Assembly: GCA_000004695.1 (NCBI GenBank)
Contig: CM000152.2
Span: 1,664,001-1,728,000, forward strand
DNA from: Dictyostelium discoideum
Lineage: Eukaryota
DNA: 64,000 nucleotides
Direction: 5' to 3'
Shown: positions 25,106 through 33,393 of the stretch, piece after piece
Layout: the number at the start of each line of letters is the position of its first letter
How positions within the stretch are numbered: the first letter of the stretch is position 1
Translations under genes and position numbers: made by a program
Notes under the pieces: model-generated
What the model saw: the letters and a program-made list of their open reading frames with translations, nothing else
Told to the model about the DNA's origin: nothing
Databases searched by the model: none

Positions 25106-25681
25106 ATGGCAGAATCATTCCAACAATTAGGGGTTGGATCAAAGTCAAATGAAAGATCTTTTTTCTCAAAATTCTTTGGCACAGATGATTCACAAAAAGA
25201 TTTTGGGCCATTGCCTGAAATTGAATATAGCGATGAACAAAGGTTTAATCCTTATCCAGCCATTTATGAAAAGAAAAACAACAACAACAACAACAACAAC
25301 AACAACAACAACAACAACAACAACAACAACAACAACAACAACAACAATAATAATAATAATAATAACAATAGCAATGGCAATGGCAATAGGTCAAATAGTT
25401 CTTTAAATAATAGTAATAATAATAATCAAGTTAGAAGAACTCATTCACCAAGTGTCTCTAATAAATCCGATGAAAGTAATACGACAAATACAAACACAAA
25501 CATTACGACAAATACAAATATTACGACAAATACAAATACCAATACAAATACAAATAGTACAAATAATGACACAAGTTCAAATGTAACACAACAGCAATTA
25601 CTTACAAATCTTGGTCAAAGTAAAATTATTAGTGCATTAAAAACAAAATTTCAAAGACCATTACCGCCTGTTGATGATAAA
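25106..25681 (+). CDS. pip5k3: PIKfyve/Fab1 (1-phosphatidylinositol-3-phosphate 5-kinase) exon 1 of 3.
   Basis: MAESFQQLG... N-terminus with poly-N/T tracts. A GTTTGT donor at 25682 gives a phase-0 junction DDK|KFWMPD into the FYVE finger. Confidence 0.65.
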
Positions 25682-25783
25682 GTTTGTATTTTTTTATTTG
25701 GCATATATATATATATATATTTTAATAATAACTCTATATTTACAAACTTCTTTTGTTTTTTTATTTTTTTATTTATTTTTTAG

Positions 25784-31300: not shown

Positions 31301-33393
31301 GTATAGTTTCATCAATTTCACAAACTAGAATTTTAGGTCCAACCATGCCTTATCTCTTATTAGAATCAACTGATAATGTAGCTTTATTTGAAAATGAACC
31401 AAGTACAACCATTGCTTACACTTTATCAAGTTCAGATTTTAAAATTGCTCTCAATTCTTTATTGGATGAAGAATGGAAAAGAATTAGTGAAATTGAAAAA
31501 CAATATGAATTACAACAACAACAACAACAAGATTCACAAGATTTAGAATCATCATCACAACAACAACAACAACAACAACAACAACAACAAGAACAACAAG
31601 AACAACCATCATTACCAACACCATCTCATCCATTATCACAATCAATGAATTTTTCACCATCATCACTATTAAAAATATCATCATCGTCGTTACCTAAAGA
31701 TAATAATAATAGCTCTGAAAATAAACCAAACTCTGAAACAAATGATATAGTTAGATCAAGAGGATCAGTTAAATTATCAGGTTCACCAATTTCAATTTCA
31801 CCACTTTCAAATGCATTTGAAAAGAGAAAATCAACATCATTATCTTCTAGTGCAAATAATTCACCAATTTCTTCAATTTTAGAGAAGGAAAAGAAATTAA
31901 AACAACAATCACCATCATTATCAAATTCTTTATCTGGTCAAACTATTATTAATAATAATCAACAACAACAACAACAACAACAACCTTCACCAATTATAAT
32001 TGATGAAAAAGATGATAGAAACACTGAAAAATCATCAATCATTGAAACTGATTCAATCATTGAAGATTTAAATATTAATCAAGATGAATCTAATATTACA
32101 AATGAAGATGGTGGTAAAATTGGTGATTATGAATCTGAATTATTATATGATCATCATCAACAAGGTGATAGTGAAAATAATAATAATAATAATAATAATA
32201 ATAATAATAATAATAATAATAATAATAATAATAATAATAATAATAATAATAATAATACTAATAATAATAATGAACAACAAATTAATAATAGTGATACAGA
32301 AGGTGATTCAGATTCAATTAAATCATCAAATTCAAATATTTACTCTGAAAAGAATATTAAATTATCAAAATTAATGGTATCAACACAACGTAAAGAGATT
32401 AGAAGTAGATTTAAATTTGAAAAGAATGGTTATGAATTGAATATTTTCTGTTCATCTTATTATCCTGTACAATTTCATGCATTACGTGAATATATGTGTG
32501 GTGATCAAGAGTTTATTCAATCATTAACTCGTTCCAAAATTTGGAATGCTAAAGGTGGTAAGAGTGGATCATCATGGAATAAAACATTGGATGATCGTTT
32601 CATTCTAAAACAAGTTAGTAGAATTGAATTGGAATCATTCTTGGATTTTGCACCATTATATTTTGAATATATTTGTAAATCATTTTTAAATCAAATTCCA
32701 ACAGCACTTTGCAAGATTTTAGGTGTTTTCACTGTACGTTGGAAGGACTCGAATGGTAAAGCCTTAAAGAAAGATCTCATTGTAATGGAGAATCTATTCC
32801 ATAGTAAATGTATCTCCAAAACTTATGATCTTAAAGGTTCATTAAGAGGAAGATTGGTCAAAAATGAGTCTGAAGTTTTATTGGATGAAAATTTATTACA
32901 AGCTTCTTTTGCCTCTCCAATTTGTTTAGGTGAATATGACAAAACTCGTGTTGCCTTGGCGGTTTGGAATGATACCGCTTTCCTTTCCTCTTTAAATGTT
33001 ATGGATTATTCTTTATTGTCTGGTATTGATAATCAATCGAATCAATTGGTAGTTGGTATCATAGATTATATGAGAAAATTCACATGGGATAAAGCATTGG
33101 AAATGAAAGTTAAACAATCTGGTATCATGGGTGGTGGTGGTAAAGTTCCAACTGTCATCTCTCCAAAACAATATAAACTTAGATTCAGAGATGCAATGTG
33201 GTTATATTTTACACTTTCTCCTGATAAATTCACAAAAGTTAAACATTTAATGCCATATGAAAAAAAGAAAAATAATAATAATAATTATAATTATAATAAT
33301 TTTAATAACAATAATTTTAATAATAATAATAATATTAGTAATAATGGTAATGGAAATATAAATCAAAGACAAGTCCAACAAATTAATAAATAA
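28345..33393 (+). CDS. pip5k3: PIKfyve/Fab1 exon 3 of 3 (CCT/TCP-1-like domain, conserved Cys-rich region, C-terminal PIP kinase catalytic domain).
   Basis: Chaperonin-like segment ...GATIIIRGEDLAVLKIIKKILKLSIFSMHNAYLE. PIPKc motifs are GKSGSSWNKTLDDRFILKQV, IIDYMRKFTWDKALE and MDYSLLSGID. Acceptor ATTAG at 28344. Confidence 0.8.
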   Translation: MKKIPGGNKSECNYVDGVVMTKILTHKKMKDKFINPKILLLSCSVEFQRVENKFLYFDQLLQQEKEYLRILVSKIAERKPDLVLVEKTVSRHAQDFLLDAGISLALNVKPKLLERLGRCLGGEVLPTLDIIYNNNSNNNNSNSIQLQQQQNSNSPASLQNSTTTTNNNNNNNNNSTTLGSCGQFKVITYSEIGLKEKEILGKKTLMYFEKCPVELGATIIIRGEDLAVLKIIKKILKLSIFSMHNAYLELKYLNDQSSTSNLLFVNNNGQNLSCSPQIKFPLPKTYPTIPWKYQFTSQHIPVKKALLTSFYKPHSDFGQQQSVIQWTSDDEVLGIGTSDAFKHCDMKFPIENESIYDHQSIVFSHSIFCNSNQCIPFEIHAIDYYTDNDLTLGEFLSKFCFSLHICNIKECNRPLIEHERTFMNSTTRINICVQKTQTIQDRPTNSSPAQQRNQPVQRAGINVINLCKICNKFSPESPMSEEAWEMSFGKFLELCFFGFLPIKTGISPECSHNNAKDHISYFYYQDLAAIFSYEPLPSLELSLPPKNLKATYTEKQRQSVRAKELEIMNQCANQVYSAIHERLYEIGQENQGDRVQELIPSLVQEKQLICSKIESLLLLPESAHKSNDQIINLTKLLYANFMTWNSQLTGLIDSTSYQRSKRNVQQQQQQQQHQQSQQPQPQILIGGDVYSDSHLHTDSVKKINSKQHSHNTILLQSIQSNQEQQLEQQEEFEINVNNNNNNNNNNNNNNNNNNNNNNNNNNNNNNNNNNNNTIDNKSENENENKNENKNENENENENKNENKNENENENKKENENQLEIKNENNDSGEEITNNNNNNNNNNNNNNNNNNNNNNNIDNNNNKDENISSTPLLSPSSVLGVSNSGINQAFLNAPNNTYNSVEQDLTLPLNHQSLNFAVGGLVSPGSSSGGLPVGSVPNSSSMPSIHNGGSGNIPSNLVGSASGLSTNYSPNALKDPKKLKIIDTIAGIVSSISQTRILGPTMPYLLLESTDNVALFENEPSTTIAYTLSSSDFKIALNSLLDEEWKRISEIEKQYELQQQQQQDSQDLESSSQQQQQQQQQQQEQQEQPSLPTPSHPLSQSMNFSPSSLLKISSSSLPKDNNNSSENKPNSETNDIVRSRGSVKLSGSPISISPLSNAFEKRKSTSLSSSANNSPISSILEKEKKLKQQSPSLSNSLSGQTIINNNQQQQQQQQPSPIIIDEKDDRNTEKSSIIETDSIIEDLNINQDESNITNEDGGKIGDYESELLYDHHQQGDSENNNNNNNNNNNNNNNNNNNNNNNNNNNTNNNNEQQINNSDTEGDSDSIKSSNSNIYSEKNIKLSKLMVSTQRKEIRSRFKFEKNGYELNIFCSSYYPVQFHALREYMCGDQEFIQSLTRSKIWNAKGGKSGSSWNKTLDDRFILKQVSRIELESFLDFAPLYFEYICKSFLNQIPTALCKILGVFTVRWKDSNGKALKKDLIVMENLFHSKCISKTYDLKGSLRGRLVKNESEVLLDENLLQASFASPICLGEYDKTRVALAVWNDTAFLSSLNVMDYSLLSGIDNQSNQLVVGIIDYMRKFTWDKALEMKVKQSGIMGGGGKVPTVISPKQYKLRFRDAMWLYFTLSPDKFTKVKHLMPYEKKKNNNNNYNYNNFNNNNFNNNNNISNNGNGNINQRQVQQINK
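30553..30660 (+). repeat. (AAT)36 trinucleotide repeat encoding poly-Asn inside PIKfyve. Similar arrays lie at 30841..30910 and 32181..32265.
   Basis: Uninterrupted aat triplets. The adjacent 30670..30790 is a (GAAAAT/AAAAAT)n array encoding ENENKNEN. Confidence 0.9.

Follow-up and report, generated by a model that had tools for sequence, protein, structure and literature searches.

An in-frame stop codon in one version of the Dictyostelium discoideum pikfyve gene is most likely a single-base assembly error

Within a 64,000-nucleotide (nt) stretch of Dictyostelium discoideum DNA (contig CM000152.2, positions 1,664,001 to 1,728,000; hereafter the window, to whose own numbering all coordinates refer), an initial annotation made from the sequence alone had joined four adjacent open reading frames (ORFs) into one PIKfyve/Fab1 gene of about 2700 codons that is interrupted by an in-frame TAA codon. 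Is this stop codon a property of the D. discoideum gene or of the particular version of its sequence found in the window? We consider it highly probable that the locus is the known three-exon pikfyve gene, and that the TAA codon is a single-base discrepancy private to the window version, most likely a consensus or base-call error, with no intron, readthrough, or truncation involved. Under this reading, base 26718 would be an A in place of a T, and the codon TTA for Leu504 would thereby be read as TAA. The erroneous base would stem from the source assembly of the window, which we take to be the older AX4 reference with its gaps. Exon 2 would in the organism be translated straight through the site as ...DQTSSLINNNN..., and the product would be a lipid kinase of 2696 residues with FYVE, CCT-like, and PIP kinase domains.

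The gene spans 8288 nt on the plus strand (25106-33393). Exon 1 (25106..25681, 192 codons) encodes an N-terminal Asn- and Thr-rich region of low complexity; exon 2 (25784..28249, 822 codons) encodes the FYVE finger, followed by an extended low-complexity linker and the first part of the CCT-like domain; exon 3 (28345..33393, 1682 codons plus the stop codon) encodes the Cpn60/TCP-1-like domain, a central conserved region, and the PIP kinase domain. The two introns that separate them, intron 1 (25682..25783, 102 nt, GTTTGT..TTTTAG) and intron 2 (28250..28344, 95 nt, GTAAAT..ATTAG), have the canonical GT..AG ends described in the initial annotation and are AT-rich, with a guanine-plus-cytosine (GC) content of 0.12 and 0.04, respectively, while that of the exons is 0.27-0.29. 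Joined, the three exons comprise 8091 nt or 2697 codons, as expected for the single gene of about 2700 codons that had been proposed. Three of the domains named in the initial annotation were matched by Pfam, and they occur in the expected order: FYVE (PF01363, E = 1.5e-18) at N-terminal residues 195-254 (about 25790-25969, within exon 2), Cpn60_TCP1 (PF00118, E = 6.4e-22) at the start of exon 3 (about 28345-29085), and the C-terminal catalytic domain PIP5K (PF01504, E = 5.1e-34), whose best stretch lies at about 32551-33042. Cys-rich stretches are visible in the three-exon translation between the CCT and kinase domains, and Pfam reported no DEP domain in the PIKfyve protein of the window. The same order of FYVE, Cpn60/TCP-1-like, and PIPK domains characterizes the Fab1/PIKfyve family (yeast Fab1, human PIKFYVE, plant FAB1A/B), but the protein encoded in the window is much longer, through poly-Asn, poly-Gln, and poly-His tracts.

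The only internal stop codon of this model is codon 504, the TAA at 26717-26719 in the sequence TCA TCA TAA ATA AAT (26711-26725). It closes the ORF 25793..26719, whose frame is shared by the downstream ORF 26810..28312, and no second stop codon lies between the two; the TAA is therefore in frame with both of its neighbors, as had been stated. Since we estimate (a calculation of our own rather than the output of a tool) that about 0.086 stops per random codon occur at the base composition of the window, the open runs of 311 and 530 codons that flank this single stop in the same frame greatly exceed what chance would produce.

That the locus is the known D. discoideum pikfyve gene (pip5k3; DDB_G0279149; UniProt accession B0G126, PMC13503823) follows from the published primers and from a published insertion coordinate, both of which map here. 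Nine of the nine knockout and diagnostic PIKfyve primers reported in two papers match the window exactly, and the published knockout arms fall at 28693-30423 and 27429-32572. A restriction enzyme-mediated integration (REMI) event in DDB_G0279149 was localized to a DpnII site at nt 7,044 (PMC8417116); the GATC at window position 32149 is nt 7044 when counted from the ATG at 25106, so that this ATG is the published gene start. The order of the FYVE, CCT-like, and PIP kinase domains, together with a conserved Cys/His-rich region, has been reported for D. discoideum PIKfyve (PMC6382210), as have phosphatidylinositol 3-phosphate 5-kinase activity and vacuolation upon loss of the gene (PMC6382210, PMC8417116). 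In both Ax2 and Ax3, loss of PIKfyve causes strong vacuolation and sporulation defects (PMC6382210, PMC8417116). Furthermore, a fusion of green fluorescent protein (GFP) to the C-terminus of PIKfyve, made from Dictyostelium cDNA, labels vesicles, with localization to early macropinosomes and phagosomes, and complements the knockout (PMC10309190, PMC13143211); a continuous ORF must therefore exist in vivo.

The codon at issue was then compared with its counterparts in four other assemblies. These were reached through a neighboring single-exon gene (22586-24169, minus strand, 528 amino acids) by exact protein look-up: its product is identical to EAL67872.1/XP_641848.1 [D. discoideum AX4] and also to KAM9949196.1 in GCA_054883475.1, whose sequence CM142509.1 (L001) is near-identical to the window. 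Three further assemblies were found via the 90% cluster of the same neighbor protein, namely GCA_054859385.1 (L004) and GCA_054859355.1 (L005), both from D. discoideum and more divergent, and GCA_054859205.1 (L006) from D. cf. discoideum. In four out of four, codon 504 is TTA (Leu), a sense codon; the base that differs is 26718, and not 26717, where the initial annotation had placed the sense codon that, in a reference sequence, would refute an interrupted gene. L004, L005, and L006 all read TCA TCA TTA ATA AAT at the site, and in each of the four assemblies exon 2 is free of stops throughout, with an open frame of 308 or more codons before codon 504 and of 496 or more after it.

The near-identical assembly L001 is also informative about the gene structure. 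Its annotation contains the same gene of 8288 nt, with a product of 2696 residues and no intron at the site of the stop codon. Subtraction of the coding part from the gene span, 8288 - (2696 x 3 + 3), leaves 197 nt, which equals 102 + 95 nt; the annotated product thus consists of exactly these three exons without any further intron, in agreement with both the gene model and the two introns proposed at the outset. Over the 8288 nt, L001 and the window differ at four bases only (99.95% identity): at 25132 (G in the window, T in L001; Gly9, synonymous), at 26718 (A to T; TAA stop to TTA, Leu504), at 27305 (G to T; Ala700 to Ser), and at 27925 (A to G; Lys906, synonymous). Translation of the same exons from L001 gave 2696 residues with zero internal stops and ...DQTSSLINNNN... 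at the site. The window version of D. discoideum pikfyve alone carries the TAA at codon 504, in addition to three further single-base differences from its near-identical counterpart. The truncated, FYVE-only protein of about 500 amino acids that had been predicted follows only from a literal reading of the window version. Among the other explanations offered at that time, base-calling error and strain-specific allele fit the comparison, whereas stop-codon readthrough is disfavored by the TTA in four assemblies. Judged from the sequences compared, the pikfyve gene itself is biologically uninterrupted.

In L004 (bases 1-8900), the annotation divides the PIKfyve locus into two genes (2649 and 220 amino acids) despite the open frame near codon 504; this looks like a split at the 5' end of the gene.

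Is the discrepancy at 26718 an error or a genuine allele? Over 21.6 kb, the window shares 99.66% identity with L001, and the codon repeats in the aligned stretch around the stop are of equal length. For six isolated substitutions between the two, a comparison with one or several of the more divergent assemblies was possible (14721, 20267, 25132, 26718, 27305, 27925). At six of these six sites the base in the window is a singleton, while none is private to L001, which matches every aligned assembly save L004 with a third base (A) at 25132. Residue 700, affected by the substitution at 27305, is Ala in the window and Ser in all other assemblies as well as in a dictyostelid ortholog, P0057 (see below). 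Besides 26718, there are five further window-private substitutions within about 13 kb; this points to a frequency of about one base error every 2-4 kb in this part of the source assembly. The mutation rate of D. discoideum is 2.9e-11 per site per generation (PMC3466296), far too low to make several real private mutations in 8 kb of a laboratory lineage credible. In the same study, resequenced AX4 lines (Saxer et al.) were found to have in common 1916 candidate differences from the AX4 reference, which the authors put down to reference errors, stock differences, or mutations acquired as cells were expanded ahead of founding the lines (PMC3466296). Base errors in the assembly from which the window was taken explain the window-private pattern. 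A similar situation is known from reference-genome base errors that mimic nonsense mutations: here, too, a single assembly has the stop, further private substitutions occur alongside it, and experiments show the locus to be functional. In contrast to those cases, the putative base error at this locus was deduced from a comparison of assemblies.

The properties of the sequences themselves give hints as to their origin. Two runs of exactly 100 N (41907-42006 and 50976-51075) are assembly gaps, and the window therefore comes from a gapped, scaffolded assembly. Between the window and L001 (12541-34176), ten of ten insertions or deletions (indels) affect A/T homopolymers, from which L001 lacks 1-10 nt; homopolymer compression of this kind is typical of long-read assemblies, and L001, like its sister assemblies, is apparently nanopore-based. 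AX4 was the only earlier high-quality D. discoideum assembly, and at another locus on chromosome 3 the AX4 and AX2-214 assemblies are 99.5% identical (Holland et al., PMC12745789). From the gaps and from the identity of the neighboring product with the AX4 protein XP_641848.1, we infer that the window was taken from the AX4 reference; L001 presumably represents AX2-214 (PRJNA1300491).

The alternative that retains most support is that the sequenced clone or strain truly carries a nonsense mutation of its own, which would leave a truncated, FYVE-only protein or would be partly rescued by cryptic splicing (26694..26765 or 26646..26765). The A at 26718 is, after all, present in the window as given, and the stop is spanned by some GT..AG pairs that keep the frame and that have an intron-like GC content of 0.17 and a good donor, GTAAATTT. 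However, the five additional window-private substitutions, set against none private to L001, are too many for mutations of a laboratory lineage and fit sequence error better, and the strong defects that follow PIKfyve loss in Ax2/Ax3 make a null allele in a standard strain improbable. Rescue by cryptic splicing is further disfavored by its acceptor, a poor GGAG located 5 nt past a better TAATAG, use of which would shift the frame into a stop. Collectively, we regard a private nonsense allele as unlikely. A variant of this scenario, a real TAA in a laboratory clone (e.g., AX4) with PIKfyve function kept by exitron-like splicing of 26694..26765 or 26646..26765, strikes us as more doubtful still; if true, a widely used laboratory strain would carry a hypomorphic PIKfyve.

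A different solution would be a real spliceosomal intron in all strains, either of 120 nt (26646..26765, GTAAAT..GTGGAG) or of 72 nt (26694..26765) with the same acceptor, so that the codon is never translated. The initial annotation had listed only two GT..AG introns able to remove the stop, 26694..26831 and 26646..26831. This list was incomplete, as the two pairs ending at 26765 also keep the frame and have a lower GC content (0.17 each). Their ends are canonical GT..AG, their length and GC content fall in the range seen for Dictyostelium introns of the window, and the donor of the 120-nt candidate, the best of the frame-keeping pairs, is identical to that of intron 2, but its acceptor is poor. 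In our reading of the sequence, the better TAATAG acceptor leads to a stop 12 codons later. The GC content alone cannot tell introns from poly-Asn exons, and many false intron-like GT..AG segments are present in Asn-rich exons.

We built a codon-usage log-odds score from the long ORFs of the window itself versus its non-coding DNA. The two halves of the 120-nt candidate score +0.46 and +0.33 bits per codon in the frame of the gene, with lower values in the other frames. The median for windows of PIKfyve exon 3 is +0.65, and among 11 confident introns 32 of 33 frame scores range from -0.13 to -1.79, with a lone exception at +0.34. By this measure, the segment 26646..26765 looks like an exon. 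The variation between strains points in the same direction. Within 26646-26765, the single-base changes in L004, L005, and L006 are mostly synonymous third-position changes (TTC to TTT, AAA to AAG, AAT to AAC); two replacements occur, GTT to GCA (Val to Ala) and AAT to ACT (Asn to Thr) in L005, and the indels, which lie in (CAA)n and (AAT)n runs, are all multiples of three. Such a pattern is typical of translated sequence, and not of an intron. Codon score and between-strain variation thus sustain the earlier view that no real intron spans the stop codon.

Additional evidence comes from P0057 (EukProt gene3331-4176_t, 1991 amino acids), the sole dictyostelid ortholog that was retrieved. It aligns collinearly with the window protein at KFSLN--FQSPF, inside the 120-nt candidate, and at SILD..(I/V)FYSDQE.NYD just downstream, with an E-value of 7e-4 for the downstream block and of 0.059 for the extended alignment. 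Splicing from the donor at 26646 was consequently rejected: it would delete KFSLNFQSPF, and it is also disfavored by the codon score, the variation between strains, and the annotation of L001. The acceptor at 26831 was rejected as well, since its use would delete the SIL of the conserved SILD..FYSDQE block along with GC-rich, coding-like DNA.

Against a constitutive intron, its segment is open and in frame in the four other assemblies, varies in the manner of coding DNA, scores as coding in the frame of the gene, contains the collinear KFSLNFQSPF, and is annotated as exon in L001. One further point is in its favor. The 120-nt intron model yields a product of 2656 amino acids, and the curated UniProt entry B0G126 presumably has 2656 residues as well; this serves as a lead only. 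If this length is correct, the curated protein would follow the 120-nt intron model, the stop would have been bridged by curators, and 40 real residues including KFSLNFQSPF would have been lost. We nevertheless consider an intron in all strains highly improbable. Programmed readthrough of a conserved TAA, for which only the open downstream frame speaks, has next to no probability, because the stop is not conserved (a sense codon is present in four of the four other assemblies), TAA followed by A is a context for efficient termination, and no Rfam element was found in the stop region. Coding-type variation across the segment and the lack of the stop in the relatives leave virtually no room for a constitutive intron or for programmed readthrough. 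Equally remote is the notion that the window is correct and that four other assemblies err alike at 26718; they look like long-read products with compressed homopolymers, but 26718 does not lie in a homopolymer, and these separately assembled genomes, three of which differ from the window at many nearby sites, all have T.

Several points weigh against a single-base error in the window version and should be considered together. The base at 26718 was compared across assemblies, so that a private nonsense allele in the sequenced clone retains a small probability; the identity of the source assembly of the window is deduced; frame-keeping GT..AG candidate introns over the stop do exist; and the presumed length of B0G126 agrees with one of them. 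Moreover, L001 and its sister long-read assemblies have errors of their own, although a shared substitution error in four independent assemblies that agree on T is very unlikely. Taking a single-base error as the preferred reading, we deduce a corrected product of 2696 residues with Leu504 and, probably, Ser700.

The database searches with the window sequence neither favor nor disfavor the curated gene model. The best relatives among the matches listed were distant FAB1/PIKfyve proteins, and Dictyostelium sequences were absent among the matches listed in three protein searches. The first two, run with queries rich in low-complexity sequence, were limited to 8000 candidates; the third, made with a cleaned query, also missed the ortholog P0057. 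Neither the window ORFs nor three candidate spliced products (2656, 2649, and 2672 amino acids) had an exact match in the protein collection. The annotated L001 product of 2696 amino acids is likewise absent from it, and this absence is therefore uninformative about the curated model.

The biological interest of the locus is low: its kinase is already well studied, and the stop that interrupts the gene is most probably a single wrong base in a single assembly. There are practical consequences, though. Gene models based on the window sequence are all forced into a shortened protein or an invented intron, and a bridging intron of 120 nt would remove 40 residues including KFSLNFQSPF, which is common to another dictyostelid. 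Single-base nonsense or missense calls in the assembly underlying the window need to be checked against newer assemblies before they are interpreted.

The sequences KFSLN..FQSPF (26648-26680) and SILD..(I/V)FYSDQE.NYD (26821-26880) are shared motifs in an otherwise unconserved linker between the FYVE and CCT domains. Both could be linear motifs; a Ser-Pro site lies within FQSPF. In P0057 the FYVE region of the gene model (residues ~108-147) reads GNFGCLIIRVQFVMNVLHYLQHLKEDIIVDYVVKYFVGG, which is not a FYVE finger; this probably reflects a mis-predicted intron or frame in that annotation.

The genes around pikfyve were also inspected. Upstream of it (11769-24169) lie genes for MTHFR (627 amino acids), an ankyrin-repeat protein (380 amino acids), an adaptin-domain protein (942 amino acids), a protein of 708 amino acids without a Pfam match, and the glycosidase-superfamily protein of 528 amino acids (XP_641848.1) used above as an entry point; downstream (33579-34154) lies a two-exon gene for an EF-hand protein of 150 amino acids. 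This gene order is conserved in four of the four other assemblies. Compared with L001, the window has densely clustered A/T substitutions and a deletion of 10 nt at 20716-20921, in an AT-rich segment between the ORFs 20072..20821 and 20878..21990, which form a single gene for the 708-amino-acid protein in the annotation of L001; the cluster may represent a misalignment, a real difference, or an assembly error. The sole structured RNA match in the window is a tRNA-Cys (GCA) gene on the minus strand (7337-7410), which was detected by both ARAGORN and Rfam.

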